A DNA stretch of 64,000 nt from an uncultured Eubacteriales bacterium (GCA_948806215.1 CAQIDI010000002.1:93602-157601); one strand, 5' to 3'. Shown: positions 20,208 through 51,800, numbered from the stretch's first letter. The notes: a model not told the origin generated them from the sequence alone. A program made the numbers and translations.

Positions 20208-21449
20208 CTACCTTTTTTTAATTATAAAATCGTTTTCGTATAAAACACCTTCAACTGTGTTTTTATCGCCAAGTAACTCCTCTCGTTTACGGGTTTTCAT
20301 TATTGTTTTCTTTTGATTTTGCAATATTGGGAACAGTTCAAAATATTGACGCTCTAGTTGTTTATAATCGTCAATGCGTTTAAAAAACAAATTATCCACC
20401 ATTCTATCGTAAGAATCTGCTAGTTTTTCGGCTTCGGCTTCTAACTTAGAATTTACTTCGGTATTGTTTTCTATTTTGGAATTAATAATTTTTGCCCTTG
20501 CCAACAATTTTTTTGTTATGCGTTCTGCCCCACTATATAAATCATTATCAACTTGATTAATGGTTCTTAAGCCTAAACCTTGGAACACACCATCAACATA
20601 ATCGCAAAGTTCTTGCTTTGCTTGTTTTACATTAGGATAATCCGTTAACAAATCTGCTTTTAAAATGTTTAAAAAAAAGTTAAAGTTAGAAGTTTTTTCG
20701 TCGTAAGCGTGATAAACACTATCGCGAGCTTGCTCCTGAATAAACGCCGAAAAAAGCCTTTTTATTTCTGTTGATAAATTTGGTAAATTTAGCAATTTTG
20801 CACACTCTTGGCAAGTGTAATCACGAGCAGCAATTTCGCAAGGTTCGTTACCATAAAAAAACGATTCGTTAGTGCTTTTTCTAATATCAAACACCAAATC
20901 GTCAATATCAAAAAAGTTACTAAGCAAAATATTTTTGGTTTTATCCTTGCTAAACTTATCACTATTATATTGCTTGTTTATATTATCCATTAACTTTTGA
21001 TAAAGTGCACCAATTTTGCTTTCGGGTTGCAGTTTTGAAAAATCACCACTGTTTATAGCATTAATTTGAAAAATGTGATTACTTTCGTGAATTACAAACT
21101 CAAACACAATAAAAGGGAAAAATTTGTTAAAGCACGCTTTCATAAACTCGTAACTATCGCCAATTTTAGAGTTAAATTCCACACTGGGATTTGCTTCAAA
21201 TTTTGTAAATCCCATTGTTCCACCATTAAATTTTCTATATTTACACGGAGAATATTGTTCGTTTTTAGATTCGCAATATTTTATATGCACTGCTTGCAGA
21301 TACTGCAATAATTCTTGTTTGTTATCAATTTCAAAATAAAACTTATATGGGTTAACTAAACTCATAAGTTGTTCATAAGAATAATTTTCAAATTTTCCCA
21401 CATCAATATCATTTTTGTAGTTAAACATTTTGTTTTTTAATTCAGCCAT
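20208..21449 (-). CDS. Hypothetical protein with an HExxH motif
   Basis: 413 aa. FVIHESNHIF contains HESNH, and a possible third ligand lies in GNEPCEIAARDY. I recognise no family. Confidence 0.45.
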   Translation of the reverse strand: MAELKNKMFNYKNDIDVGKFENYSYEQLMSLVNPYKFYFEIDNKQELLQYLQAVHIKYCESKNEQYSPCKYRKFNGGTMGFTKFEANPSVEFNSKIGDSYEFMKACFNKFFPFIVFEFVIHESNHIFQINAINSGDFSKLQPESKIGALYQKLMDNINKQYNSDKFSKDKTKNILLSNFFDIDDLVFDIRKSTNESFFYGNEPCEIAARDYTCQECAKLLNLPNLSTEIKRLFSAFIQEQARDSVYHAYDEKTSNFNFFLNILKADLLTDYPNVKQAKQELCDYVDGVFQGLGLRTINQVDNDLYSGAERITKKLLARAKIINSKIENNTEVNSKLEAEAEKLADSYDRMVDNLFFKRIDDYKQLERQYFELFPILQNQKKTIMKTRKREELLGDKNTVEGVLYENDFIIKKR

Positions 21450-21615: not shown

Positions 21616-22335
21616 ATGAATAACATTAGTTTTGAATCCGACAACTTAATGTATAAAAAGCCCAACTTTTTTCTAAAATTTTTAAGCGATGCTTTTGTAA
21701 CAGTTTGCATTATTATTGCATTGTTTATAATATTTTTTAGTTTTATTTTTGTAAGCGCACCGGTTACTGGTGTTTCTATGCAACCAACATTAAATGCAAA
21801 TGGCGAATCCAAACAAGACATTGTTTATATTAACAAATTGCTACCTTATAGCTATGGCGATATTGTTGTTATAGAACGACCAACAAATAATGTTGATGTT
21901 AAATACATAATTAAGCGTGTTGTTGGAATGCCCGGTGACAGAATTAAAATTATGCAAGACGAAGATTATAAAGTTTATTTGTTTAGAAATGGTAAAAAAA
22001 TAGAAGAAGATTATATTTTTGATGCCGAAAATTGCGACGACCCACACAACTACGGAATGTATGCAACTTTACAACAATACTTAGACCTTATTAATAATGT
22101 AAAAAAATATCCTAACAACTATCCTAATGTTGTGTTTGACGATGGTTGGTTAGTTTTGCAAAAAGACCAAATTTTTGTTTTAGGAGATAATCGCGGTTAT
22201 AGCGAAGATAGTTCTGCACTAGGACCTTTTAACAAAAATAAAGTTGTTGGCCGAGTTGATTTTATTATTCCGCACGGTGTTGTTCCTTTTTATTATTTCT
22301 TAAAATATTACACAGGTATTGATTTAGGTATTTAA
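21616..22335 (+). CDS. lepB: Signal peptidase I
   Basis: N-terminal TM segment, then GVSMQPTL (catalytic Ser), IKRVVGMPGD (Lys) and VLGDNRGYSEDS. Confidence 0.9.
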   Translation: MNNISFESDNLMYKKPNFFLKFLSDAFVTVCIIIALFIIFFSFIFVSAPVTGVSMQPTLNANGESKQDIVYINKLLPYSYGDIVVIERPTNNVDVKYIIKRVVGMPGDRIKIMQDEDYKVYLFRNGKKIEEDYIFDAENCDDPHNYGMYATLQQYLDLINNVKKYPNNYPNVVFDDGWLVLQKDQIFVLGDNRGYSEDSSALGPFNKNKVVGRVDFIIPHGVVPFYYFLKYYTGIDLGI

Positions 22336-22363: not shown

Positions 22364-22452
22364 ATTTATAATTGATTTAATTAAAAAACCAATATTGACA
22401 ACCTGTAGCTTTTAGTTTACTATTATTTTAAGTTAAAATGGAAGGTGTGGCA

Positions 22453-23121
22453 ATGAGCGAAATAGAAAAGAAAATTTTAACCGAAAATTTAAGAATGGTT
22501 GATTTACCTTACGAACAAGTTGAAGAGTTATATAATGGCGTATTTAAAAAATTTAGCCCCGATTATTTTACAAAAGAAAATCAAACATTTTTTAGTTTGC
22601 CAAAAAACATAACCGAAGAAGAATTAGCCGATTTAAAAATTCCTACAAAAGGCATAATAACTTCAGATGGAACAATATATTCGGTTGATAAATTACACAT
22701 CGAAGTTGGAATGTGGCTTAGAGCAAATAATGTTGATTTAACAAATTCTATTAGATACGCTATTTATCCTAAGGGTTATGAAATTTATCCTTCCTACGAA
22801 AGTTTTGGAAAAATTGAGAATGTTGATAGCTTAGATAAGTTAGAGCAAGAATATTTGGATAAATACGAGAACGATTTATCAACTGACCGCATTATTGAAC
22901 TTAGTAAAAAACAAGTTGTTTCTATTGTTAATGTTGCAAAAAAATATAACGAATCTGCATTAAGTTCTGTTTTAAGAACAAACTGTTTTGGTTTGCACAA
23001 ACAACCATACGAATACGAAAATACAGTGGATGCTTTTAAAGTTAGATATAATCGATTATATTTTGAGGAATGTGGATTTACTGCTAGAGAATTAACAAGC
23101 ATAAAAAAAGGTTGGCATTAA
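22453..23121 (+). CDS. Hypothetical protein
   Basis: ORF 22438-23121. The ATG at 22453 has a better SD (GAAGGTG, 5 nt upstream). No recognisable motif. Confidence 0.45.
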   Translation: MSEIEKKILTENLRMVDLPYEQVEELYNGVFKKFSPDYFTKENQTFFSLPKNITEEELADLKIPTKGIITSDGTIYSVDKLHIEVGMWLRANNVDLTNSIRYAIYPKGYEIYPSYESFGKIENVDSLDKLEQEYLDKYENDLSTDRIIELSKKQVVSIVNVAKKYNESALSSVLRTNCFGLHKQPYEYENTVDAFKVRYNRLYFEECGFTARELTSIKKGWH

Positions 23122-23129
23122 AATTAATA

Positions 23130-23162
23130 AAAAAAGAAAAGCGATATTCGCTTTTCTTTTTT
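23130..23162. terminator. Bidirectional terminator between convergent genes
   Basis: GAAAAGCGA-tat-TCGCTTTTC, flanked by an A-run and a T-run. Confidence 0.75.
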
Positions 23163-26100
23163 AACTTATAATCGCATTTTTAATTGCATTAACAAAGCTT
23201 GCAATTAATTGTTCTATTTCGGAATATTCGTTAACAAACGATTTGCTGTAGCTAGCTTCGTTTCCGCTATTAACTAAATCTAAGTAGTTAACGCATTCTT
23301 CAATGCTTACGCTTAACTTATTATTTAAAGCCTTATAGGAATTATTAATTTCTTCGGTAGCATAACTAGCAACTGGAGTATACCACGATTCAATAATTGT
23401 TCTAAGTTCGGTTAAAACAAATTTATGCATTCTAACTGTTGATTTTAATGGAACAACATTTAGTTTGCTTAAAGCATCTAAGCAAGTTCCAAATGGGGAT
23501 AGAACATAGTTTTCTTTAGTTATTTTAACTTCTTTTAAAATATCAAAAATATCTTTTAAGCCTTCAAACTCACTAAATATTAACTGATATGTCATAACTT
23601 GACCATTGTTAGAAAGTTCTCCCCTTTCGACTTTTTGTGCACAAACTCTGGTTTGAGCATTTATATCGTTTATAGCAATAATAACATCGGTAGCCAAATT
23701 CCCTTCGGTTATAATTGTTTGTGTTAATAACTTATCAAACAATTTAAATCTAATTGGACGAAGCAATACACTATTTCCAAAATCATCTAATTTTTTACCA
23801 ATCCAAGAAATTCCGGTTATTGAACCACTGGTTACATCATCACGAATATCAATAAATTCTTTTAAGTGTTTAAACTCTTCTTCAAAACTTGTAATGTTTG
23901 GCACAGCATTTTTAATATCAATAATCATTTCTTTTAATTCTTGATCATCTGTGCTTTTTTCTGCTTCGTTTAATATCATAACCACAACGTCGTGACGAAC
24001 ATTTCCAAGCAGAACACTATTATCAAATTCATCTAGGAAAGCACCAAAACCAACAAAGTCAAAAGTTGCAACTTCGATAACTTTTAATTCTTCCGCTTTA
24101 TCAACAAATTTCTTTAAATAAGTAAATTCGTTTTGATAGCTTGTTATGTTATCTACATTAGATTTTATTTTATTAATAATATCAACTAAATCTTGTGGGA
24201 AATCGGTTGTATCAATTTTACCAATTATTAACTTAACCAAATCTGCCCTTATTGGCGAAATTATAACGCTTGGTCTAACATCCGAAGAAATATCAAATTC
24301 GTCTAACATTCTGCCAAAGCGAGCATAGTTAAAGTTATCAATATCAATTCTTGTTATTTCGTTAATTAATGTGTTAAGAGCAACAATTTCTTGTTTATAG
24401 CTTAAATCGGTGGTTTCAACAATAATAGTTTTAATTTTATTAACAATTTTTAAAGTGTCTAAATCGGTGATATCTTTTGCAAAATCGTCAACAGCATTAA
24501 CTAGAACTTCGGTTATTACTTCACGATTAATAAGTTTGCTATTTTTTGCAATAACATTATCAATGCGTTCGCCAACCTTTTCCATTGGAACTGTAACATC
24601 GTTAAAGTCGTTTGCAACAAGAGCCAACTCTTTAATTGTTTCAAATTCTAATTTCCAATCAATATTTGTTGCATTTGTTAAATTATTATTAATTTTTATA
24701 AATGCACCATTAGCAATATTTGTTCCTTCTGGAAGCAAACTTTCGGCATAATCGATAATAACTTTTACTAAGTTTTTAATTTCTTTTCCAAACAATGTGC
24801 TATTTTCTAGACTGTTAACACTTTCGCCAAGTTCGCTAAAATAGGTGTTATCATCTTTTAAAATATTTTGTTCAACATCCACATCTGTTGCCATTTTGCT
24901 AAATGTCGAAAATAATTTTTGATAAGTTTTAAATTCTTGTTGCCAACTAGAAACTTGTTCAACATTATTAGAAATTCGTTCTAATATTGGCTTCATATCA
25001 TTTAGTTCTTGTGGTAGTTCGTTTTTAATTAATTTAAAAGTTGCTTTTGCAACTGGTATTATAGCATCACCTAGCAAGGTGGTGGTTTTAACACCATCAA
25101 GCACTGCACCCATATCTTCTAAATTTAGTTCTGGGTCGCCATTGTAACTTTCGTAAACTCTAATTGCGTTATCAAAAACATTTCCAACTTTGGTTAGTTC
25201 TTCTTCGAACTTAGTAATTTTATTTAAGTTATGAACAGAGCTAAGCAATGGTTCTTTGAAATCGTTAAAACTTTCATCTAAATCGTCAAGCATTGATTCA
25301 AGTGAATCGTATAATCTATTTTCAACAGCTGTAATAATTTTTTTGTAGTTTTCAGTTCCCAAACCCGGATATGCAACAATTGCATCTAATATTTGACCAA
25401 TGTAACCAAAGGTTTGATTTGTTACATAATATTTAGATTCGGTATCAATTGTGTTATACGCTTTTAAACTTATGTTAATTAAAGCGTTTGTTAAGTTTTT
25501 AACTTCTTCAACAGAAACAACTTGTTCTTCAACTTTAAAATCGGTTACATCTAAACTTTCGGCAATATACCAAAAAACTGCATTTAAAATAACTGGCATT
25601 GCTGTGCCCAATGTTTTCATTTCATAAATTTGATCGGTTAATGCAGTTGCATCTTCTTCGGATAAGTAATCCCAAACATCGGTTTCTTTAATTTCATTAT
25701 TTAAAATTAAGGCTAACAAATCATTTTTATTTAATATTTTGCAAATGTTTAAAATACAATGTACTTCGTTTTTGAGATCGGTGTATTTAATATCTTTAAT
25801 TTGAGTTAATGTTTCCCTTGCGGTGTAGTTTAAAATTTTATCATTGCTAGCAGGAAGTTTTATAACAAACTCATCGTTAGTAAGCATTTCATTAATTACA
25901 TAAGGAAGCAACTTATCACCAATAACATTAATTGTGTTAATTTCAAACATATTGTTTGTAGCGGTTTCGATTATATCAATAAGTTTTGTTAATTTTTGAT
26001 AATGATAATTTTTAAATTCATAATTTTTCAATTCTGAAAAACTATCAACTGTTTTAAAAACCGATGTTACTTCATTTTTTAAAACAATGTTTTGATTATT

Positions 26101-26925
26101 AACTTTTGTTGTGCTAAGTGCATCAAACGCTAGCCCATTAAAAAACTCGATGCCAGTGTAACGCAAAACACCTAGCGGAACACTCTTATCATAAGCACGA
26201 ATTAGGTCACCAACTTCGGCACTTAAATTTTTAGTAAAAAATCCGTTTTTGCCAGTGCGTAGTTGCTTTCCATTTTTATCAGTTACAACATTGCCATCCT
26301 TATCAAGCAATAACTCGGAAGTTTCATATTCTACTTTGTTTGCAATGTTTAATATTCCCATAACAGGCATTATTGTGGTTGCACCAACAAATATTCCAAG
26401 AAAAACCCCAACAAGCATTCCCCACGCACGATACTTTTTCTTTTTGGTTTTATCTTTGTTTTTCTTTTTAATAAATATTGCACTAAGTATTGCCCATAAT
26501 GGCCACAATAAAATTTTTACTAACCAGAAAAATAATACATATAAAATAGCATTAAAAAATATCGTTACAATTTGAAGAACTGCTTTAATAACATCTGGAT
26601 TATCAATAAATATTTGAGCATATTCGCCAGTAACTTCTTTGTTACATAACAAGCCACTAACAAATTCGTTAATGGTTGTTAACTCAACGCCCTTAACACT
26701 TATTCCTATAAACGAAACATTTAAGTTCATTATTGCGTTTGTTACTACTGGTGTTACAAAAAATAATATTAGGGCAATAACAAAAATCCAAACAAGCCTA
26801 AACGATTGCTTTTTAAGCCCCCTAATAATTCCCCAAAGCATTCCGCTTAAAACAAATAAAACAAACACTCCTAATAGTGCTAGCGGAATAGCCATATTAA
26901 CTGTTGAATTTAATAATAAACTCAT
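23161..26925 (-). CDS. Large membrane-anchored protein: CvpA-like N-terminal TM domain plus tandem alpha-helical repeats
   Basis: Start set at the ATG at 26925 (MSLLLNSTVNMAIPLALLG...). About 5 TM segments in the first ~230 aa, including the GIIRGLKKQ motif resembling CvpA. The remaining ~1000 aa are soluble and contain a recurring module. Confidence 0.7.
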   Translation of the reverse strand: MSLLLNSTVNMAIPLALLGVFVLFVLSGMLWGIIRGLKKQSFRLVWIFVIALILFFVTPVVTNAIMNLNVSFIGISVKGVELTTINEFVSGLLCNKEVTGEYAQIFIDNPDVIKAVLQIVTIFFNAILYVLFFWLVKILLWPLWAILSAIFIKKKNKDKTKKKKYRAWGMLVGVFLGIFVGATTIMPVMGILNIANKVEYETSELLLDKDGNVVTDKNGKQLRTGKNGFFTKNLSAEVGDLIRAYDKSVPLGVLRYTGIEFFNGLAFDALSTTKVNNQNIVLKNEVTSVFKTVDSFSELKNYEFKNYHYQKLTKLIDIIETATNNMFEINTINVIGDKLLPYVINEMLTNDEFVIKLPASNDKILNYTARETLTQIKDIKYTDLKNEVHCILNICKILNKNDLLALILNNEIKETDVWDYLSEEDATALTDQIYEMKTLGTAMPVILNAVFWYIAESLDVTDFKVEEQVVSVEEVKNLTNALINISLKAYNTIDTESKYYVTNQTFGYIGQILDAIVAYPGLGTENYKKIITAVENRLYDSLESMLDDLDESFNDFKEPLLSSVHNLNKITKFEEELTKVGNVFDNAIRVYESYNGDPELNLEDMGAVLDGVKTTTLLGDAIIPVAKATFKLIKNELPQELNDMKPILERISNNVEQVSSWQQEFKTYQKLFSTFSKMATDVDVEQNILKDDNTYFSELGESVNSLENSTLFGKEIKNLVKVIIDYAESLLPEGTNIANGAFIKINNNLTNATNIDWKLEFETIKELALVANDFNDVTVPMEKVGERIDNVIAKNSKLINREVITEVLVNAVDDFAKDITDLDTLKIVNKIKTIIVETTDLSYKQEIVALNTLINEITRIDIDNFNYARFGRMLDEFDISSDVRPSVIISPIRADLVKLIIGKIDTTDFPQDLVDIINKIKSNVDNITSYQNEFTYLKKFVDKAEELKVIEVATFDFVGFGAFLDEFDNSVLLGNVRHDVVVMILNEAEKSTDDQELKEMIIDIKNAVPNITSFEEEFKHLKEFIDIRDDVTSGSITGISWIGKKLDDFGNSVLLRPIRFKLFDKLLTQTIITEGNLATDVIIAINDINAQTRVCAQKVERGELSNNGQVMTYQLIFSEFEGLKDIFDILKEVKITKENYVLSPFGTCLDALSKLNVVPLKSTVRMHKFVLTELRTIIESWYTPVASYATEEINNSYKALNNKLSVSIEECVNYLDLVNSGNEASYSKSFVNEYSEIEQLIASFVNAIKNAIIS
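23600..25300 (-). repeat. Degenerate tandem protein repeats with a period of about 255-275 nt (at least 7 units; boundaries approximate)
   Basis: Recurring anchors are FGxxLDxFxNSxLL... and ...I(I/V)xKIKxNVxNI(T/S)S(Y/F/W)xxEFxxLKxF. Examples: FGRMLDEFDISS, FGAFLDEFDNSVLL, IGKKLDDFGNSVLL; SYQNEFTYLKKF, SFEEEFKHLKEF, SWQQEFKTYQKLF. Confidence 0.55.
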
Positions 26926-27011
26926 AGTAGTATCCTTTACCAATAATAATTGGCGATAAATATTATTTTTAACAATATTAGTATATATTATTTTATTTAT
27001 AATAACAATAA

Positions 27012-27049
27012 AAAACAAAAAAAGTGCATTTAATAAACACACTTTTTTT
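27012..27049. terminator. Hairpin terminator after gyrA
   Basis: AAGTG...CACTT stem with a 13-nt loop, flanked by A-rich and T7 runs. Confidence 0.5.
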
Positions 27050-27058
27050 ACAAAATTT

Positions 27059-29674
27059 TTATTCTAAATCTTCAGAATTTTCGTTATTATTTTCGTTTTC
27101 GCTAACTTCAACTTCGTTATCTAAACTTAACTCTTGGTTATTTGAAACTGTGTTAGTTGGAGTTTCTGGTAAACTTTCGGCTAAAGCTTCTTCCTCTTCA
27201 ACACTTGGAGTTACAGCAACACAAACAATTTTTGCATCCTTATTAACTCTCATTACTCTAACGCCTTTTGTGTTACGACCAATAACGCTAATTTCGCTTG
27301 CTTTAATTCTAATAATGGTGCCATCGTCGGCAATCATCATAACATCATCGGCATCGGTAACTTGTTTTAGGTTAACCAAATTTCCGGTTTGTTCGTTAAA
27401 CACTCCGGCTTTAATACCTTTACCCGATCTGCCTTGAACACGATAATCTTCTTGGCTACTACGCTTTCCGTAACCAAGTTCCGAAATTGTTAACATATAA
27501 CTATCCGGAACAATTACCGACATATCAACAATGCGTTCGCCTTCGTCTAGGCTCATAGACTTAACACCTTGAGTATCACGACCCATTGCTCTAACGCCAC
27601 GTTCGTTAAATCTAATACATTTTCCAGAAGAACTTGCAATAATAATTTCGTTGTTACCGTTAGTGATATAAACCGAAATTAATTCGTCACCATCGTTTAA
27701 CTTAATTGCAACTTTGCCAACTTTTCTTATGCTTGCAAATTCAGTTAAATTTGTTTTCTTAATTAAACCGTTTTTGGTTGCCATCATAAGGTAACCAATA
27801 GTATCTGGTTTAACAGGAATTATTGCGGTTATGCGTTCGTCGCCATCAATTTGTAAAACATTAACTATTGCTCTGCCTTTAGCTGTTCTTTGTGCTTCAG
27901 GAACTTCGAAAGCTTTAATTCTGTAAACTCTACCATAAGAGCTAAAACACAACAAATCGTCGTGAGAAGAAGTTACAAAAATGTTTTCCACAAAATCTTC
28001 TTCTTTAGTTGTGTGAGCAATTATTCCTTTTCCACCACGGTGTTGGCTCTTATACTCGCTAACTGGCATACGCTTTACATATCCACCATGAGTTAAGGAA
28101 ATAACAACATCTTCTTCAGGAATTAAATCTGCAATATCAATATCGCCATAATCTAAACTAATTTCACTTTTTCTAGGCACTCCAAACCTACCTTTTATTG
28201 CTAATAAGTCGGTTTTTATTATATTAAGCACCTTGTTATTGTCAGAAAGTATACTTTGTAGTTCAGAAATTAAGTTTCTAATATCAGCTAAATCTTGTTT
28301 TAGTTTTTCAACTTCAAGCCCTGTTAAGCGTTGTAAACGCATTTCTAAAATGGCTTGAGTTTGTTTTTCGCTTAGTTCAAAATTTTGCATTAACTTTGTT
28401 TGAGCATCATCTTTATCAGCACTTTCTTTAATGATTTTAATAACTTCATCAATGTGTGCTTGTGCTATTACTAAACCATTTAAAATATGTTCTTTTGCTT
28501 GCGCTTTATCAAGATCAAATCTTGTTCTGCGAACAATAACTTCTTCTTGGAAAGCAAGATAGTTTTGTAAAACTTCTTTTAAATTTAAAATTTTTGGAAC
28601 AGAGTTAACAAGTGCTAACATTATAACACCAAAACTTATTTGAAGTTGGGTGTGTTTATATAAAGAATTTAAAACTACTTGTGGGTTATAATCTCGCTTA
28701 ACATCAATAACAATTCTTAAACCTTCACGGTCGGATTCTTCTTTAATATCTGAAATTCCTTCAATGCGTTTATTTTTAACTAAGTCGGCAATTTGAATAA
28801 TTAATTTTGCCTTATTAACCTGATAAGGAATTTCGGTTATTACAATTCGGTTTCTAGTGCCATTGTTAAATTCTTCAATTTCGGCACGGCTTCTAATAAT
28901 AAAGCTACCCCTACCAGTTCTATACGCTTGCTTAATTCCGTTACGACCAAGAATTAAACCTCTGGTTGGAAAATCTGGTGCAGGAATAATTTTTATTAAT
29001 TCGTCAATATCAATTTCTGGGTTTTCAATTAACGCTATAACACCATCAATAACTTCGCCTAGGTTGTGTGGAGGAATGTTTGTTGCCATACCAACAGCAA
29101 TACCATCAGATCCATTAACTAAAAGATTTGGGAAACGAGCTGGTAACACATTTGGTTCAACTTCGCTTTCGTCAAAGTTAGGAACGAAGTTAACAGTGTT
29201 CTTATCAATATCCGATAACATTTCGGCTGCGATTTTGCTAAGTCTGGCTTCGGTATAACGCTGAGCTGCTGGAGGATCGCCATCCACAGAACCAAAGTTT
29301 CCGTGCCCATCAACTAATGGAGCATTAATTGTGAAATCTTGAGCAAGTCGAACTAACGCTTCGTAAACCGCACTATCGCCGTGTGGGTGATATTTACCTA
29401 AAACATCACCGACAATACGAGCACATTTCTTAAAAGGTTTATCGTTATATAATCCTAAATCGCCCATAGCATATAAAATACGACGATGAACAGGCTTTAA
29501 ACCATCTCTAACATCAGGAATAGCACGACTAACATTTACTGCCATTGCATAGGCAATAAATGATTTTTCAAGTTCTTCTTTTATTTTTATATCCAAAAGT
29601 TTTCCGCCATCGTTTCCACCATTGTCGGTAACACTGGCATCACTTTGGATTAATTCTTCTTTTTTATCGTCCAT
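27059..29674 (-). CDS. gyrA: DNA gyrase subunit A
   Basis: [23 protein letters not shown], the YHPHGD QRDR region, C-terminal beta-pinwheel repeats and an acidic tail. Confidence 0.97.
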
Positions 29675-29699
29675 TTTAAAATTTCCTTATTTTTAGTTT

Positions 29700-31661
<1,962 letters not shown>

Positions 31662-31785
31662 TTACTTAAAAAGAATATTCCTTTTAAGTAATCTTAAACT
31701 ATATATATATTATCATATTTATTTACTATATGTAAAGTAAATATAATAAATAATATATATTATATACTATATAACATTTTAAACA

Positions 31786-31856
31786 GCCCAAATTGACACA
31801 ATTTAATAAAAATAATGTATTTTATCGTTTAAATTGGTTTTGTGTCAAATTGGGGC
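31786..31856. promoter_or_regulatory. Inverted repeat bracketing the putative gyrB core promoter
   Basis: GCCCAAATTGACACA (31786-31800) against TGTGTCAAATTGGGGC (31841-31856). 13 of 14 core positions are complementary, with a 40-bp spacer. Confidence 0.45.
31819..31848 (-). promoter_or_regulatory. Putative gyrBA promoter
   Basis: On the minus strand, TTGACA (31848-31843), 18-nt spacer, TAAAAT (31824-31819). This implies a leader of about 180 nt. Confidence 0.45.
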
Positions 31857-31877
31857 GATTTTGCCGTTTATAAATAA

Positions 31878-31906
31878 TTGACAATGTTAAGATAAATTAA
31901 TAAAAT
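31878..31906 (+). promoter_or_regulatory. Putative promoter of the 31930 gene
   Basis: TTGACA, 17-nt spacer, TAAAAT. Confidence 0.55.
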
Positions 31907-31929
31907 ACAAATAATTAGAGGTAATACAA

Positions 31930-32430
31930 ATGAATAATCCAACCAAACAACGAGATTTAACTATTAACTTATTTCACGAAGATGTTTTTAACGAATATGG
32001 TGTTGACGAACACACAATACTACAAGAAGATTTAACTTCTACAATCGAGTCGTTATCGAACACAATAAAAGTTAACACTAAATTAAATTTAAACTTTTGC
32101 GTTAATCAGGGTATTAATGTTGATGAAACAAAATTTATTGAAGCTTATAAAAACACCTTTGCGGCAAACATAAAAATGAAAAGATTGGAGTTAAGCAGAT
32201 GTTTAACAACTGGTTTTTCGTTACTAGTTGTTGGTATACTATTAATTTTACTTAATGTTTTTGTTTTTGAAGAACTAGAAAAATTTACTTACGAAATGTT
32301 TAGTGTTATTTCTTGGGTGTTTATGTGGGCAGCTGTTGAAACATTAACGCTAGAGTTAATTCAAATATTAATCGAAATAAAAAAATCAAAAAAACTGTTA
32401 AAATCAAACTTAACTTTCACAAAAAAATAA
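31930..32430 (+). CDS. Small membrane protein of unknown function
   Basis: 166 aa: soluble N-terminal half followed by two TM segments. AGAGG SD upstream. Confidence 0.5.
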   Translation: MNNPTKQRDLTINLFHEDVFNEYGVDEHTILQEDLTSTIESLSNTIKVNTKLNLNFCVNQGINVDETKFIEAYKNTFAANIKMKRLELSRCLTTGFSLLVVGILLILLNVFVFEELEKFTYEMFSVISWVFMWAAVETLTLELIQILIEIKKSKKLLKSNLTFTKK

Positions 32431-32457
32431 AGTGTTCGTAATTGAACACTTTTTTAT

Positions 32458-34245
32458 TTATTCTACGGTTACCGATTTTGCAAGCGACCTTGGTTTATCA
32501 GGGTTAAGCTTTTTTAGCACGCTTACGTGAAAAGCAATTAATTGCATTATAACAATTACAACAATCGGCATATAAAATTCATCAATATTATTTAACTTTA
32601 TTAACTTATAAACATTATCGCTTTTTAAGTTATACTGGGTAAGTAAAATAACTTTTCCGCCGCGAGAAATAACTTCGTTAACATTGCTAAGCGATTTTTC
32701 TAACAAATCCTTTTCTGTTAAAAATGCAAAAACAAAAGTATTGTTATCTATAAGCGAAATGGTTCCGTGTTTTAATTCCCCAGAAGCATAGGCTTCGCTA
32801 TGAATATAACTTATTTCTTTTAATTTTAAACTGGATTCTAGCGCTGTAACATAATCGAAATTTCTTCCTATCATATAAAGGCTTTGAGATAAATAAATAT
32901 CGTTTGCAACATTATTTGCAAGTATGTTAAATTTTGTTAAATTAATTTGTTTAGAAATATTTTTTAAATTATTAGCCGTGCTTTCTACCAAACCAATTTT
33001 ATCCATAATAACTTCTTTAAAATAGCTTGCAAGCAAATAAAACATACTTAACTGGCTAACATAGGCTTTTGTGCTTGCAACCGCCACCTCCGCCCCAGCT
33101 AATGTATAAAAGCAATAATCCGCAATAAAACTTATGCTTGAATTTTTTACATTAGTTATTGCAATGGTTTTTAATCCATATTGCTTTGCAATTTTTAAAG
33201 CTTTAAGTGTGTCGGCAGTTTCGCCACTTTGGCTAACAAATATCATTAATGTGTTTTTAGGTGGGACAAATTTTGAATAAATAAACTCGGAAGCAAGTTC
33301 ATTTTTTATATTTATATTTAAGTTTTGTTCAAATATTTTTCTTCCCATAAGCCCAGCGTGATAGGCTGTTCCGCAACCAACAATAATAATGTTTTTAGTT
33401 TTTTTAACAATGGTTTTTGGTAGAACCTTTTCAAATTGTTCAAAGGTTTGATACAAATTAACTGTGTTATTAACACTGTTTGGAATTTCATAAATTTCTT
33501 TTTGCATAAAATAATCGAATTTTCCTTTGTTGTTAATATCGCTTTTTTCTACCTTTATTTTTTTTAATTTAACTTGTTCTAATTTTTCATTATATATTTT
33601 AATACCATCAACAGTTAAAACTGCAAAGTTATTATTTTCTAAAACATAAGAATAATCAACTTTTCCAATGCCATTAATATCGCTACAAACTTTTGTTCCA
33701 TCCGCGCTAATTCCAACAACGCAAGGCGAAACCATTTTTGAAACAAACAGTTTATCAGGCTCTTTAGAACTAATTATTGCTAACGCATAACTACCTTTTA
33801 ATAGCTTACTAACCTTAACCAAAGTTTCAAGCATATTTTCACAATAGTATTTTTCGATTAACTTTAAAATAACTTCACTATCGGTTTCGCTTAAAAATTT
33901 GCAATTTAATTGTTTTTTTAACTCGGCATAGTTCTCAATAATTCCATTATGTACCAAACAAAAATCTTTATTTGTGCTAACAAAAGGATGAGCATTTGTT
34001 TTGTTAGGTTTTCCGTGAGTTGCCCAACGGGTGTGAGCAACACAATTAAACGAAACTGGATTAACTCTACCAACTTCAGTTTTTAAATTTTTTATTTCGC
34101 CAACTTGTTTAATAACTTTTACTTTGTTTTTTTCTATATAACCAATTCCTGCCGAATCATAACCCCTATATTCTAAACCTTCAATTCCACCTAAAACATT
34201 AGGCACAACATTGCTTTTACCTATCATTCCAAAAATTCCACACAT
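32458..34245 (-). CDS. glmS: Glutamine--fructose-6-phosphate aminotransferase
   Basis: MCGIFG N-terminal nucleophile, two SIS domains, and C-terminal LAKSVTVE. Confidence 0.95.
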   Translation of the reverse strand: MCGIFGMIGKSNVVPNVLGGIEGLEYRGYDSAGIGYIEKNKVKVIKQVGEIKNLKTEVGRVNPVSFNCVAHTRWATHGKPNKTNAHPFVSTNKDFCLVHNGIIENYAELKKQLNCKFLSETDSEVILKLIEKYYCENMLETLVKVSKLLKGSYALAIISSKEPDKLFVSKMVSPCVVGISADGTKVCSDINGIGKVDYSYVLENNNFAVLTVDGIKIYNEKLEQVKLKKIKVEKSDINNKGKFDYFMQKEIYEIPNSVNNTVNLYQTFEQFEKVLPKTIVKKTKNIIIVGCGTAYHAGLMGRKIFEQNLNINIKNELASEFIYSKFVPPKNTLMIFVSQSGETADTLKALKIAKQYGLKTIAITNVKNSSISFIADYCFYTLAGAEVAVASTKAYVSQLSMFYLLASYFKEVIMDKIGLVESTANNLKNISKQINLTKFNILANNVANDIYLSQSLYMIGRNFDYVTALESSLKLKEISYIHSEAYASGELKHGTISLIDNNTFVFAFLTEKDLLEKSLSNVNEVISRGGKVILLTQYNLKSDNVYKLIKLNNIDEFYMPIVVIVIMQLIAFHVSVLKKLNPDKPRSLAKSVTVE

Positions 34246-34296
34246 TTAATACTCCTTAAAATTTAGATAGTATTTTATATGAATTAATCTGATAAA

Positions 34297-34329
34297 TTGA
34301 TTTTAAAAATCAACAAATTTTGATATAAT
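34297..34329 (+). promoter_or_regulatory. 17-bp palindrome plus an extended -10 promoter abutting the recF start
   Basis: TTGATTTT-A-AAAATCAA (34297-34313), then TGATATAAT (34321-34329). The ATG at 34336 lies 7 nt after the -10, and there is no SD. Confidence 0.5.
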
Positions 34330-34335
34330 ATTTAT

Positions 34336-35415
34336 ATGGAAATTAAAAGTGTTGAGCTAAAGAATTTTAGAAATTATTCACAACAAAAAGTTAATTTTAG
34401 TTCTGGCTTAAATGTGCTAGAAGGTAAAAATGCCCAAGGAAAAACCAATTTAGTTGAGGCAATTTTTTTATGCGCTATTGGAAAAAGCCCACGAGTTAAT
34501 CGTGATAAAGATTTAATTTTATGGAACGAAAATCTTTCTAAGGTAACAATTAACTACGAAAAAAACAGCGGCAACAAAAAAATTGAACTATACCTATTTT
34601 CAAATCAGAACAAAGCAATAAAAATAAATGGTGTTCCCATTAAAAAAATGGGCGAACTAATGGGCGAATTTAATGCAATATATTTTTCTCCGGACGAATT
34701 AAAATTGGTTAAAGAAAGCCCCGACGAACGCCGAAGATTTATGGATATTGACTTAAGCCAATTTAATAAAAATTATTTTTATGCTTTAAATAAATATAAT
34801 AAAATTTTAATGCAACGAAACAAATTGTTAAAATCTAGTAACACCAGTTCCATTCAAGAAACACTATCTATTTGGAACGAACAACTAAGCGAACAAGGTT
34901 CTTACATTATTTGTGAACGATTAAAACTAATAGAAAAATTAAAAGTTTTTGCTAAAGATGCTCACGCCTATTTAACAGATGATGCCGAAAATATGGAAAT
35001 TAGTTATGTTGGCAGAGTTGGAGAAAATAAAGAACAAATAAAACAACTTTTAAAAGCCGATTATGAAAATTCGTTTGAAAAGGATTTAAATCTTGGTTAC
35101 ACAACCGTTGGCCCGCACCGAGATGATATTAAAATTGTTGTTAACGGAATTGATATTAGACACTTTGGCAGCCAAGGTCAACAACGAAGTGCTGCCCTTA
35201 GCTTAAAACTAAGCGAATTAGAAGTTTTTAAGTTTAACATTGGAGAATACCCTATTTTGTTGTTAGACGATGTTTTAAGCGAACTAGACGAAAGCAGACG
35301 AAAAAAATTATTAGATAAAATCTCTAACTTTCAAACAATTCTAACCTGTACCGAGTTCAACGAAAACATAAGTGCAAAAGTGTTTAAAGTTGAAAACGGT
35401 AAAGTTAACTTATAA
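34336..35415 (+). CDS. recF: DNA replication/repair protein RecF
   Basis: LKNFRNY, Walker A GKNAQGKTN, signature GSQGQQRS and LLLDDV. Confidence 0.95.
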   Translation: MEIKSVELKNFRNYSQQKVNFSSGLNVLEGKNAQGKTNLVEAIFLCAIGKSPRVNRDKDLILWNENLSKVTINYEKNSGNKKIELYLFSNQNKAIKINGVPIKKMGELMGEFNAIYFSPDELKLVKESPDERRRFMDIDLSQFNKNYFYALNKYNKILMQRNKLLKSSNTSSIQETLSIWNEQLSEQGSYIICERLKLIEKLKVFAKDAHAYLTDDAENMEISYVGRVGENKEQIKQLLKADYENSFEKDLNLGYTTVGPHRDDIKIVVNGIDIRHFGSQGQQRSAALSLKLSELEVFKFNIGEYPILLLDDVLSELDESRRKKLLDKISNFQTILTCTEFNENISAKVFKVENGKVNL

Positions 35416-35484
35416 TTTACTTTACAATTAAAAGTGGTTAAACTAAAATATTAAATAGATATAAAACTATTAAAAGGAAAAATA

Positions 35485-36834
35485 ATGCTAAACATTGAAG
35501 ATATATGGTTAAAAACTTGCAATATTCTACAACGAGAAGTTACAGCTGTTTCCTATGATTTATGGATTAGATCACTAGCTCCAATAGATTATAGTAACGG
35601 AATAATGTATCTTTCAACTTCTAGCGAATCGGCAAAAGCACGAGTTTTAAAACTTCACTATGGTCAAATTAAAGAGGCCTTATCAGAAGTTGAACCACAA
35701 ATAACCGATTTTAAAGTTTTAGACCCACTAGAAAGAGATAATTACTTTAAACGATTAGAAGAACAAAGCCAAGAAAAATCACCTTACACAAATCCAATTT
35801 GTTCGTTTAATCAAAAATACACTTTTGATAACTTTGTTGTTGGTAATAGTAACAAATATGTTTATGCTGCTGCTCGTGGGGTGGCGGAACATCCTTTTGA
35901 TAAAATTAACCCTTTATTTATTTATGGTGGAGTTGGTTTGGGTAAAACTCACCTTCTACACGCTATTGGAAATTATTTAAAAGTTAATAACCCAGAATTA
36001 AAAGTTTTATATGTTACTTGTGAAAAGTTTACGCACGATTATATTGAAAGCTTAAAAAGTTCAAAGGCCCAAGCAAATGCCGAATATCGTGATAAATACA
36101 GAAATAATATTGATGTTTTAATGATTGACGATATTCAATTTATTTCAAATAAAGCCGGAACTCAAGAAGAGTTTTTCCACACCTTTAACGATTTATATCA
36201 AAAGGGTAAACAAATTATTATTGCTTCCGACCGTAACCCTAAAGAAATTGCTAACCTAGAAGAACGCTTGCGTAGCAGATTTAGTATGGGTATTATTCAA
36301 GATATTCAAGTACCCGATTACGAAACAAGACTTGCTATTTTGCAAAAAAAGGCTCAGCAAGAGCATTATAGCGTTGAAGAAGATGTTATTTCGTTAATAG
36401 CCGAAAAATGCGACACAAACATAAGAGAGCTTGAAGGAATGCTTGGCAAAGTTTGCTTTTATGCAAGTTTGCTTGGCAAACCAACTGCTAACCTAGACGA
36501 TTTTAACGAAGCATTAAAGGATGTTATTAACACTTCAAAACAAAACTTAACAGCCGATAGAATTATAGATTGTGTTTGCAAATATTTTAGCATTAACAAA
36601 GAAGATTTAATTGGTAAAAAGAAAAATAAAGAAATTGTTGAACCAAGACAAATTTGTATGTATTTAATCTGTGAAATGTTAGACCTTCCGTTAGTATCAA
36701 TAGGAGAACTATTTGGCGGCCGCGACCACACAACTGTTATTCACGCAAGAGAAAAAGTTAGCGATTTAATTAAAGAAAACAATCGCATTAAAGTTGAAGT
36801 TAACGATATAAAAAGTATGGCAAACCGAATGTAA
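35485..36834 (+). CDS. dnaA: Chromosomal replication initiator DnaA
   Basis: FDNFVVGNSN, GGVGLGKTHL, the domain IV sequence GGRDHTTVIHA, and an SD upstream. Confidence 0.97.
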   Translation: MLNIEDIWLKTCNILQREVTAVSYDLWIRSLAPIDYSNGIMYLSTSSESAKARVLKLHYGQIKEALSEVEPQITDFKVLDPLERDNYFKRLEEQSQEKSPYTNPICSFNQKYTFDNFVVGNSNKYVYAAARGVAEHPFDKINPLFIYGGVGLGKTHLLHAIGNYLKVNNPELKVLYVTCEKFTHDYIESLKSSKAQANAEYRDKYRNNIDVLMIDDIQFISNKAGTQEEFFHTFNDLYQKGKQIIIASDRNPKEIANLEERLRSRFSMGIIQDIQVPDYETRLAILQKKAQQEHYSVEEDVISLIAEKCDTNIRELEGMLGKVCFYASLLGKPTANLDDFNEALKDVINTSKQNLTADRIIDCVCKYFSINKEDLIGKKKNKEIVEPRQICMYLICEMLDLPLVSIGELFGGRDHTTVIHAREKVSDLIKENNRIKVEVNDIKSMANRM

Positions 36835-37036
36835 TTGTGGAAATGTTAATAACTTATAAAACTTTTTCACATAGTTATAAACATAAATTTTATATCTAAT
36901 AAAATAATAAAATGGCTAAGTTAAGCCAAAAATTATTAATTAAAAACATTAAAAACCCACTTATCCACATTTACACACACATTATTATAATAGATATAAT
37001 TAAAAAAATAAAAAATATATATTTGGAGGCAAAAAA
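36835..37036. other. Candidate oriC segment (DnaA boxes plus AT-rich unwinding region) in the dnaA-dnaN gap
   Basis: Perfect TTATCCACA at 36961-36969. Three 7/9 boxes at 36836-36844 (reverse), 36863-36871 and 36971-36979. A nearly pure A/T tract spans 36981-37020. Confidence 0.55.
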
Positions 37037-38137
37037 GTGAAATTAATTTGTGACGGATTAGATTTGTCTGACGCAGTAGCAAAAGTAATTAAAGCAACAA
37101 GTCAGAAAACAACAAACCCTATTTTAGAAGGTATTAAACTTGTAGCAGAAAACGATTGTTTAACATTAAGTGCAACCGATTTAGAGTTAAGCATTGAAAA
37201 AAAGATTAAGGCAGAAATTTTTATCGAAGGCGAAACTGTTGTTCCGGGTAAATTTTTTGGTGAATATATTAAAAAATTAACTAACGAACAAATAGAGTTA
37301 TCAACAACCGATAACAATATGTTAGCAATTAAATATACCGATAGTGCTGGAACAATTCAATGTTTAAATGCACAAGAATTTCCAACCATTAAAAGTTTAG
37401 TGGATGCAGAATATTTTGAAATTGCAAGCAAAGATTTAAAACAATTAATTTTAAAAACTGTTTTTAGTGTTGCTGTAGATGATAGTCGACCAATTTTAAA
37501 AGGTGTTTTATTTGAAATTACCGATGGAAAAATTAAAGCTATTGCCCTTGATGGTTACAGATTAGCTTTAGTTAATAAAGAATTAAAAAATAACACAGCA
37601 CAATTTAGTTGCATTGTTCCTGCTAGAAGTTTAAACGAAATTAGTAAACTTTTAGAAGATAGTGAAGACAGCCTAAAAGTTCAAGTTCAAAAAAATTATT
37701 TAATGGTTGAAGTTAACGAAACAAAAATAATAACAAGGCTTTTAGATGGCGACTTTATTAACTATAATCAAATTATTCCTGCAGCATTTACAACAAGTGT
37801 TACAATTAATAAAGCGCAGTTAGAAGATGCTTTAGACAGAGCTAGTTTATTAAGTAGAATTGATAAAAACAATTTGGTTAAATTTGATATTGGCGATAAG
37901 CTTATGAAATTAAGTTCAAAAAGCGATATTGGCGATATTAAAGAAAACATTACAATTGCTCTTAATGGTAACGATTTAACCATTGCATTTAATGCAAGAT
38001 ATTTTACCGAAGCAATGCGTGTTATAACCGATGAATTTATAAAATTAAATTTCACAACTCCAAGTGCACCTTGTATTATTAACTCGGCAAACACAAACGA
38101 ATTTATTTATTTAATTTTGCCAGTAAGAATAGTTTAA
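37037..38137 (+). CDS. dnaN: DNA polymerase III beta sliding clamp
   Basis: GTG start 7 nt after GGAGG. Three-domain length (366 aa), with typical PILEGIKL, LDGYRLA and C-terminal LILPVR. Confidence 0.93.
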   Translation: MKLICDGLDLSDAVAKVIKATSQKTTNPILEGIKLVAENDCLTLSATDLELSIEKKIKAEIFIEGETVVPGKFFGEYIKKLTNEQIELSTTDNNMLAIKYTDSAGTIQCLNAQEFPTIKSLVDAEYFEIASKDLKQLILKTVFSVAVDDSRPILKGVLFEITDGKIKAIALDGYRLALVNKELKNNTAQFSCIVPARSLNEISKLLEDSEDSLKVQVQKNYLMVEVNETKIITRLLDGDFINYNQIIPAAFTTSVTINKAQLEDALDRASLLSRIDKNNLVKFDIGDKLMKLSSKSDIGDIKENITIALNGNDLTIAFNARYFTEAMRVITDEFIKLNFTTPSAPCIINSANTNEFIYLILPVRIV

Positions 38138-51098: not shown

Positions 51099-51800
51099 TT
51101 ATGCTCTGGTATCGGTTAACACATAGCAAACATTACCATCGGTAACATATTGTGTGTTATTAGCTTCAACTGCTTTAGCTGCAGGATCTGTGCCTTTACC
51201 AAGAATATCCTCTATTCTTTTTTCTAAGTTGTCGCCAACCCAAGTGCTAACATATTTGTAAACAAAGTTTGTAACTTGGTTTTTATCTTGAATTTCTTTA
51301 ACAATAGAATTATTTGGAACAAAAACTGAAATAACTGTAACTAAACCAAGAGCAACGCATCCAATTAAGAAACCTTTAGCAGCACCAAATATCATTCCTA
51401 GAACTCTATTTAATCCGCTAACTGCACTGCTAGATGCTGTAACATTATCAAATAATTTAGATAATAACCAAATTGCAAGTTTAATTAATAACCAAACACA
51501 AACAACTGCAAGAATTATTGTGCAAGTGTTAGCAAGTTGAGTAGGTGTGAAAACCTTTCCAAATAATGTTGCGCCTTCTGCAGGAACCCAACCCCAAGCA
51601 ACCATTTTTTCTGCAAAGAATGCATTACAATTAGTTATGTTATTTAGGAATGCAGCAACATATTTGCTTGCTAAAATAGCAACTATAATAGATAATGCGG
51701 TGCTAAAAATTGAAAGAATAGATTCAAATAAGCCTCTAGCTAAACCAACAATAGCAAACACCACAATAAGTGCAATGAAAACAATATCAATCCAACCCAT
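51099..51800 (-). CDS. cvpA: CvpA-family membrane protein
   Basis: MGWIDIVFIALIVVFAIVGLARGLFESILS matches the CvpA N-terminal signature. Four or five TM segments. Confidence 0.75.
   Translation of the reverse strand: MGWIDIVFIALIVVFAIVGLARGLFESILSIFSTALSIIVAILASKYVAAFLNNITNCNAFFAEKMVAWGWVPAEGATLFGKVFTPTQLANTCTIILAVVCVWLLIKLAIWLLSKLFDNVTASSSAVSGLNRVLGMIFGAAKGFLIGCVALGLVTVISVFVPNNSIVKEIQDKNQVTNFVYKYVSTWVGDNLEKRIEDILGKGTDPAAKAVEANNTQYVTDGNVCYVLTDTRA

Follow-up and report, generated by a model that had tools for sequence, protein, structure and literature searches.

The 64,000 nt stretch of DNA analyzed here (the window; GCA_948806215.1, CAQIDI010000002.1:93602-157601) originates from an uncultured Eubacteriales bacterium, and at positions 23161-26925 on its minus strand it carries a gene for a large protein in which a CvpA-like membrane module is followed by an array of helical repeats. 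The open reading frame (ORF) comprised 1,254 codons and a stop, a single gene, consistent with the protein of about 1255 aa that an earlier reading of the sequence (the original prediction) had placed at these positions; all of the anchor motifs quoted in that reading were found in the translation. The ORF could be extended upstream to a GTG at 27042; however, we preferred the ATG at 26925 because it is preceded, at a distance of 8 nt, by an AAAGGA ribosome-binding site (26933-26938, minus strand) and because gene callers had chosen the same start on public contigs, 91 of which carry an identical protein. A promoter-like site (TTGTTA-17-TATACT; 26980-27008, minus strand) lies in the 133-nt gap after gyrA; it is a weak, consensus-only match, and such sites in the region were not more numerous than expected from shuffled sequence. 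A terminator-like hairpin with a 15-bp stem (23130-23162, minus strand) follows the stop codon and is shared with a convergent gene for a 227-aa protein. We conclude that the gene is real and conserved, and that it is probably monocistronic.

We followed the membrane module by a hydrophobicity scan, AlphaFold2 modeling, and hhalign, and observed a CvpA-like four-helix module at aa 14-190 (26356-26886, minus strand). A Kyte-Doolittle scan of the first 190 aa gave hydrophobic blocks at aa 12-29, 48-61, 119-144, and 176-186. An AlphaFold2 model of aa 1-260, built from 22 sequences (predicted local distance difference test score, pLDDT, of 72), contained helices at 2-35, 37-66, 110-139, 141-151, and 166-201. 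The 110-139 and 141-151 helices together make up the third hydrophobic block (40 aa), which the model splits at the invariant P142. The roughly five hydrophobic helices originally proposed are four membrane helices and one short hydrophobic helix, and, as had also been proposed, there were no membrane segments beyond the N-terminal module. Conserved motifs were W31-G32-x-x-R35-G36 in the first transmembrane helix (TM1), F133-W134...K137...P142 in TM3, and G169-x3-G173-x3-G177 in TM4. Between TM3 and TM4 lies a lysine-rich loop (loop 3, aa 153-167, KKKNKDKTKKKKYR; 26425-26469, minus strand) that is predicted to be cytoplasmic. On the plus strand, a run of six CTTTTT units at 26434-26469 is the codon footprint of this loop (KKKNKDKTKKKK), and this homopolymer-rich stretch could be prone to slippage. 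The membrane module was the most conserved region of the protein, with 16 of 174 columns at least 80% conserved versus 7 of 458 in the repeats, suggesting that the module is more than a passive anchor. It is followed by a juxtamembrane and non-repeat helical region in the AlphaFold2 models (aa 191-499; 25429-26355, minus strand) that includes short beta-hairpins after TM4 and a conserved Y256-T257-G258.

The helical repeats occupied aa 500-1231, in units of 83-102 aa (249-306 nt), which agrees with the 255-275 nt spacing first noted; the region covered (23233-25428) is slightly wider than the 23.6-25.3 kb originally given. We cut the units at periodic glycine anchors (G510, G606, G700, G785, G871, G961, ~1044, and G1146). 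All units are on the minus strand. Unit 0 (aa 500-595, G510...E574; 25141-25428) matched units 1-4 by hhalign with E values of 2e-6 to 9e-11 and matched the repeat hidden Markov model (HMM) at 2e-21. Unit 1 (aa 596-689, MGAVLDGV...SWQQEF; 24859-25140) was detected by hhalign and the HMM, and with z-scores of 8.5-10.4 against units 2, 4, and 5. Units 2 (aa 690-774, LGESVNSL...DWKLEF; 24604-24858), 3 (aa 775-860, VGERIDNV...SYKQEI; 24346-24603), and 5 (aa 951-1033, FGAFLDEF...SFEEEF; 23827-24075) were each detected by hhalign, the HMM, and z-scores, and unit 4 (aa 861-950, FGRMLDEF...SYQNEF; 24076-24345) was detected by the HMM and matched unit 5 with an E value of 1.5e-23 and a z-score of 20.6. 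Unit 6 (aa 1034-1135, IGKKLDDF...; 23521-23826) is degenerate; its hhalign matches had E values of 3e-9 (unit 5) and 5e-6 (unit 4), and its z-scores were 5-6. The tentative unit 7 (aa 1136-1231, FGTCLDAL...; 23233-23520) gave a weak hhalign match to unit 4 (9e-5) and z-scores of at most 2.7, and had longer helices in the AlphaFold2 model. The array thus has six robust units, one more that is significant, and a tentative eighth.

The z-scores were obtained by Smith-Waterman alignment within the single window sequence against 300 shuffles. Besides the pair of units 4 and 5, they were 10.4 for units 1 and 4, 8.8 for 1 and 2, 8.5 for 1 and 5, 6.0 for 5 and 6, 5.5 for 2 and 5, 5.2 for 4 and 6, 4.5 for 2 and 3, 4.2 for 3 and 4, 3.9 for 0 and 5, and 3.7 for 0 and 1. 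Units 0-6 were therefore linked by single-sequence scores, with unit 0 joined via units 1 and 5. When family sub-alignments were compared by hhalign, pairs among units 0-5 gave E values of 1e-5 to 1.5e-23, except for units 0 and 5 (6e-4). The original claim of at least seven degenerate helical repeats of about 90 aa hence has statistical support from hhalign and shuffling for units 0-6. We did not observe significant similarity to the repeat profile at aa 195-505, and no extra repeats were found in this upstream stretch. An alignment of 26 units contained one invariant glycine and a nearly invariant glutamate, with the consensus G-x-x-L-D ... S-x-L ... I-K-x-N ... (W/Y/F)-x-x-E-F-x-x-L. The repeat HMM found one to nine units, most often six, in 179 of 180 family representatives, and gave one match in residue-shuffled versions of them. 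Homologs of 1,158 aa (the P0007 clade) lack approximately the length of one unit (~aa 995-1085; columns ~1245-1330 of alignment A3), a clean excision across the junction of units 5 and 6. Tandem Repeats Finder returned no DNA-level repeat with a period near 270 nt, and BLASTP of the protein against itself returned no internal match, suggesting that the repeats are old and visible only at the protein level.

AlphaFold2 modeling of aa 232-1254 from a 71-sequence alignment gave a mean pLDDT of 86 and a predicted template modeling score (pTM) of 0.58. The large domain was entirely helical apart from one small hairpin, so that the ~1,060 aa after the module are all-alpha in the model. Each unit was built from four helices (867-876, 890-902, 911-922, and 930-947 in unit 4), with F-G-x-x-L-D forming the short first helix and S-(W/Y/F)-x-x-E-F starting the fourth. 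A spacing of S-x-x-E is the pattern of a helix-capping box. Judging from this spacing and from their helix positions in the model, the conserved repeat anchors look structural rather than catalytic. Individual units compared with Pfam gave noise, and family proteins matched spectrin-like Pfam models only below threshold, at E values of at least 0.13. When PDB sequence profiles were searched with the full family, CvpA, or one repeat unit, the matches did not rise above the noise expected of helical or coiled-coil sequence.

We then compared the membrane module with CvpA. The genome also encodes a canonical stand-alone cvpA (51099-51800, minus strand; PF02674, 5.7e-19, 69 bits), which served as the comparator. 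This protein has a ~70-aa C-terminal tail past the Pfam domain, and its relatives range from 217 to 331 aa, illustrating a variable C terminus. Neither the whole window protein nor its isolated N terminus matched PF02674, the latter even at E≤10. Among 39 diverse family members, five matched PF02674, all below the 29.3-bit gathering score; the best was P0162 (27.5 bits, E 3.6e-6) and the others scored 13-16 bits. In the four representatives scanned individually, the matches were colinear with the profile and fell in the N-terminal module. BLASTP of the window protein against the cvpA product of the window gave only an E value of 0.026, over TM3-TM4, and phmmer of CvpA against the family gave only weak colinear matches. 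Since sequence-to-sequence comparison was too weak, profiles were needed. By hhalign, the family and a CvpA alignment matched colinearly over 184 columns that reach from TM1 past TM4, at a probability of 95.2% (E 2.7e-8); a local run gave 94.4%, and E values across runs ranged from 3e-8 to 9e-8. Reversed and block-shuffled CvpA profiles of the same composition scored 20-35, versus 56 for the real profile.

Reciprocal searches were consistent with this result: an HMM of the family N terminus ranked the cvpA of the window first among 915 non-family ORFs, and a CvpA HMM built from 29 sequences matched eight family proteins and none of ~914 background ORFs. The family invariants G32, G36, G169, G173, and G177 aligned with the CvpA invariants G19, G23, G135, G139, and G143, and nearly invariant glycines and a GXXXG motif have been described for CvpA (bioRxiv 10.1101/2020.09.25.314492). 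From these sequence comparisons, we conclude that the membrane module is a divergent, remote CvpA homolog that lies outside PF02674 as Pfam defines it. The proposed CvpA-like N terminus is borne out at the profile-profile level (94-95%), although the PF02674 profile itself, the check that the original prediction had set for it, gave no match.

To assign the sides of the membrane, we counted charges over 39 diverse family members. Loop 1 contained 35% K/R and no D/E, and loop 3 contained 33% K/R and 10.5% D/E. The corresponding values were 3.9% and 12.4% for loop 2, 6.7% and 14.6% for the segment after TM4, and 7.6% and 15.5% for the remaining ~1,000 aa. Loop 3 varied from 12 to 147 aa in length through highly charged insertions. 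The positive-inside rule assigns loops 1 and 3 to the cytoplasm, which would place the N terminus and the entire helical domain outside. CvpA is likewise predicted to be a four-pass protein whose periplasmic C terminus varies in length and is required for function (bioRxiv 10.1101/2020.09.25.314492). Both the charge distribution and the analogy with CvpA thus predict an N-out/C-out topology, with the repeat domain outside the cytoplasmic membrane. We did not observe a conserved small-x-small motif for signal-peptidase cleavage after TM4 in the family; ~45% of members have L, Y, I, C, or F at position 195, where the pattern is that of an amphipathic helix.

An exhaustive profile search of clusters at 50% identity, with a family cut-off of E≤1e-3, returned 1,197 representatives, 305 of them at E≤1e-30. 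A word-indexed search found only 32 clusters, and a second run of it using the family profile added no new protein to these 32. The protein is therefore, contrary to what had been suggested, not narrowly lineage specific. Family lengths ranged from 368 to 2,031 aa among the best 150 listed, and the membrane module was present in 11 of 11 N termini read directly. Relatives keep 35-40% identity over ~83% of the length across clades. Nineteen loci from species-representative genomes (numbered with the prefix L below) all belonged to uncultured Clostridia, Clostridiales, or Christensenella-like metagenome-assembled genomes from gut and rumen. No significant family was found for the window protein in Pfam, NCBIfam, PHROGs, or PADLOC; the source annotations read "hypothetical protein." A single "Metalloenzyme" match was seen in one family member in Pfam, and the longest members (1,860-2,030 aa) contained no extra domain. 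The 2,031-aa member P0165 (MBE5735608.1) is labeled a "YihY/virulence factor BrkB family protein"; a Pfam scan found no such domain, and the label is probably spurious on this sequence evidence.

Two other identities were considered and rejected. For a phage tape-measure or structural protein, tblastn against 50,697 phage records gave no match. PHROGs gave only a 29-residue match (E 0.0025), the best BFVD hit had an E value of 0.013 and a TM-score of 0.07, and the neighbors are gyrB/gyrA and lepB. For anti-phage defense, PADLOC gave no match for the family protein or its neighbors.

The gene lies where it was originally placed, between gyrA (27059-29674), which is upstream across the 133-nt gap, and the convergent orphan gene for the 227-aa protein (22438-23121, plus strand), which is downstream and had no match in Pfam, NCBIfam, PHROGs, or PADLOC. 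The latter sits between the family gene and the signal peptidase I gene lepB (21616-22335, plus strand; PF10502, 9e-29); L001 lacks it here, with lepB coming directly after the family gene, and it looks like a lineage-specific insertion. Beyond lepB lies orf413 (20208-21449, minus strand), an HExxH orphan of 413 aa, also with no match in the same four libraries. It has an invariant H121-E122-x-x-H125, a conserved N-x-P-x-E-I-x-A-R block, and no N-terminal hydrophobic segment, and from its sequence it may represent an undescribed zinc-metallopeptidase-like family. Homologs of 400-413 aa were found in L001 (6860-8107), L002 (3600-4802), and L005 (2952-4157). The family gene adjoins lepB in the window and in L001-L005, L007, and L008. 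The trio of lepB, orf413, and the family gene is kept in 8 of the 9 loci of the closer clades, with the orphan usually close by, despite differing orientations and outer flanks: lepB is convergent in the window and in L001, and lies upstream on the same strand in the others. In distant members, a PF06695 "small multidrug export" membrane protein adjoins the family gene or lies 1-3 kb upstream (L009 5075-5680; L010 4183-4872; L012 2386-3096; L013 4155-4841; L017 4242-4922), accompanied in L010, L012, L013, and L017 by a MarR/SarA-like regulator and a small unknown protein.

The window has a G+C content of ~30% and a GC-skew switch at 34-38 kb, where probable dnaA and dnaN genes were assigned by position, suggesting that the family gene is close to the replication origin. 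Here the gene follows gyrB-gyrA at ~8-10 kb from the skew switch (27059-38137). In L009 (9711-14165), it adjoins recF and probable dnaA and dnaN genes, so that proximity to the origin is seen in two distant lineages.

We tentatively favor a reading, quite possible rather than probable, in which the protein serves outside the cytoplasm as a scaffold or spacer that is tethered to the membrane and coupled to an envelope module of the CvpA type. TM4, which follows the lysine-rich cytoplasmic loop, would act as a signal-anchor, so that the whole helical-repeat domain would be exported but remain attached to the cytoplasmic membrane at its outer face. In this position the domain would form an elongated scaffold or spacer, on which each unit would provide a docking surface for proteins that are exported or that build the wall, and perhaps also for polymers of the wall, and the number of repeats would set its reach. 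The CvpA-type module would contribute the envelope-homeostasis activity of CvpA proteins rather than serve as a passive anchor. CvpA is widely conserved and important for bile resistance and gut colonization, by a mechanism that is enigmatic (bioRxiv 10.1101/2020.09.25.314492), and genetics has linked it to bile resistance, to the sigma-E envelope stress response, and to homeostasis of the cell wall; given these links, an envelope role is the natural expectation for the family. The persistent signal peptidase I neighborhood suggests, in addition, a link to protein export or processing. Of the scaffold, envelope, or cytoskeleton-like roles originally put forward, an envelope scaffold fits better, and a cytoskeleton-like role is the least likely, given that the charge rule and the CvpA topology predict the repeat domain to be outside. 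A bolder version, which we regard as unlikely, is that gut Clostridia possess in this family an envelope "ruler" or scaffold of a previously unrecognized class. The CvpA-type module would hold a modular four-helix solenoid that bridges the space from the membrane to the wall or to outer layers, with a reach determined by repeat number, and the solenoid would organize signal-peptidase-dependent export or wall assembly.

Several observations weigh against the extracytoplasmic scaffold. No homolog of known function supports a scaffold role, and the helical domain had no significant structural neighbor: Foldseek gave a best E value of 0.22 (TM-score <0.15) against the PDB and of 0.013 (TM-score 0.07) against BFVD. 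With a pTM of 0.58, inter-repeat geometry is uncertain, and neither "rod" nor "ruler" is therefore established. The predicted topology draws on the charge rule and on the analogy with CvpA, whose own topology is only predicted. The window protein itself has no PF02674 match, and D5 of CvpA, invariant in the CvpA alignment A5, is lost, the aligned family position being hydrophobic and unconserved. Adjacency to lepB was not seen in the more distant members L006 and L009-L018 and could be inherited synteny, and the intergenic gaps of ~110-290 nt disfavor tight translational coupling. Some of the same observations bear on whether the module is related to CvpA at all. It might be an unrelated four-helix anchor whose CvpA likeness arose by convergence of membrane composition and glycine-zipper motifs, and the PF02674 matches that all fall below the Pfam cut-off, the missing aspartate, the 13-16% identity of the hhalign alignment, and the lack of a structure to compare at the fold level are all consistent with this. 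However, the colinearity over four helices and both glycine motifs, far above composition-matched reversed or block-shuffled profiles, together with reciprocal HMM searches that found only each other among ~900 background ORFs, makes convergence very improbable.

If the module is of the CvpA type, it could itself be the working part, as a channel, transporter, or stress transducer, with the solenoid sensing a ligand or partner instead of serving as a structural scaffold. Such an envelope sensor or regulator would account for the membrane module being the most conserved region, with the invariant charged residues R35, K38, R43, and K137, and the separate canonical cvpA kept in the genome leaves room for a paralog with a specialized role. 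Furthermore, a role in binding periplasmic partners or in sensing stimuli has been suggested for the C terminus of CvpA (bioRxiv 10.1101/2020.09.25.314492). We nevertheless consider a sensor unlikely: a 1,060-aa domain of 7-8 near-equivalent repeats, with a copy number from one to nine, is unusual for a sensor, and the family members scanned contained no signaling output domain. The reverse topology would instead give a cytoplasmic, membrane-tethered scaffold of the EzrA/spectrin type that organizes division or cytoskeletal proteins, which corresponds to the cytoskeleton-like role originally proposed. An all-alpha, modular, acidic domain with 4 Cys in ~1,020 aa would suit the cytoplasm too, and the gene lies in a conserved core region, beside gyrA and near oriC. 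This reading is quite unlikely, since the positive-inside rule puts the K/R-rich loops opposite the C-terminal domain in 39 diverse members, charged loop 3 insertions of 100-147 aa would be hard to export, and the homologous CvpA is predicted to be C-out; four-helix units of 83-102 aa are also unlike three-helix spectrin repeats of 106 aa, and there was no significant Pfam match to spectrin or EzrA. An extracytoplasmic location is shared by a further possibility, that of a surface fibril, an adhesin, or a wall-associated protein released by signal peptidase I cleavage after TM4, which might explain the neighboring lepB. The large size and variable repeat number agree with it, as does the resemblance of TM4, with its lysine-rich n-region and the helix-breakers P187 and G190, to a signal sequence. 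We give it little credence: there is no conserved small-x-small site after TM4, the hydrophobic region of ~22 aa is typical of an anchor, the members scanned carry no wall-anchoring or adhesin domain, and the high conservation (an identical protein on 91 contigs; 35-40% identity among relatives) and housekeeping neighborhood are unlike those of fast-evolving adhesins.

A large paralogous family that joins a CvpA-type module to a 1,000-residue solenoid supports the idea that the module works together with its outer C-terminal attachment, and it provides a new system for asking what the CvpA module does; the envelope-ruler idea, if true, would be the first concrete handle on this enigmatic module. 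In gut and rumen metagenomes, thousands of proteins now labeled "hypothetical" would gain an annotation from Pfam-style models of the repeat and the divergent membrane module. What we suggest about function draws on sequence and analogy, so that the immediate value is descriptive.

Among known systems, alpha-solenoids such as HEAT, ARM, and TPR proteins resemble the large domain in that tandem helical units form an extended platform for protein-protein interaction. However, the family units are ~90 aa with four helices, whereas those of HEAT, ARM, and TPR are 30-45 aa with two or three, and the family has a distinct signature, with F-G-x-x-L-D in the first helix and S-(W/Y/F)-x-x-E-F opening the fourth, and matches no Pfam repeat family. 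EzrA is anchored by one membrane helix, and its cytoplasmic domain is made of three-helix bundles. Like EzrA and the spectrin-like scaffolds of Firmicutes, the window protein is membrane anchored, elongated, all-helical, and modular, and these scaffolds are plausible functional analogs; it differs from EzrA in its four membrane helices, four-helix units, and predicted external location, and shows no sequence or fold match to EzrA or spectrin in Pfam or the PDB. In MarP (Rv3671c) of Mycobacterium tuberculosis, a periplasmic serine protease is joined to a CvpA-type membrane module. The principle is that of the window protein, with a large extracytoplasmic effector domain placed after a CvpA-like module of four helices; the effector of MarP is a trypsin-like protease, whereas that of the window protein is a non-catalytic-looking alpha-helical repeat array. 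NCBIfam gave no MarP-type match for the window protein, and our literature search on a MarP-CvpA link or on CvpA domain architectures yielded nothing usable. The original statement that no characterized CvpA fusion of this kind is known therefore stands insofar as Pfam, NCBIfam, PHROGs, PADLOC, the PDB, and BFVD contain no relative, and is qualified by MarP, which would already exemplify the principle: a CvpA-type module with an extracytoplasmic domain is known in principle, and the helical repeat and the architecture are absent from every library searched. CvpA itself (PF02674) differs in having a shorter loop 2 and TM3, a far less basic loop 3, and a C-terminal extension of ~40-100 aa versus ~1,060 aa in the window protein; the family lacks the N-terminal aspartate and a Pfam-level match, and the genome keeps a canonical cvpA as well. 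What the two share is a four-helix membrane module in which G-x3-(R/K)G comes directly after TM1 and a basic loop precedes the G-x3-G-x3-G of TM4, together with a predicted N-out/C-out topology that would leave a variable C-terminal extension outside the cytoplasm.

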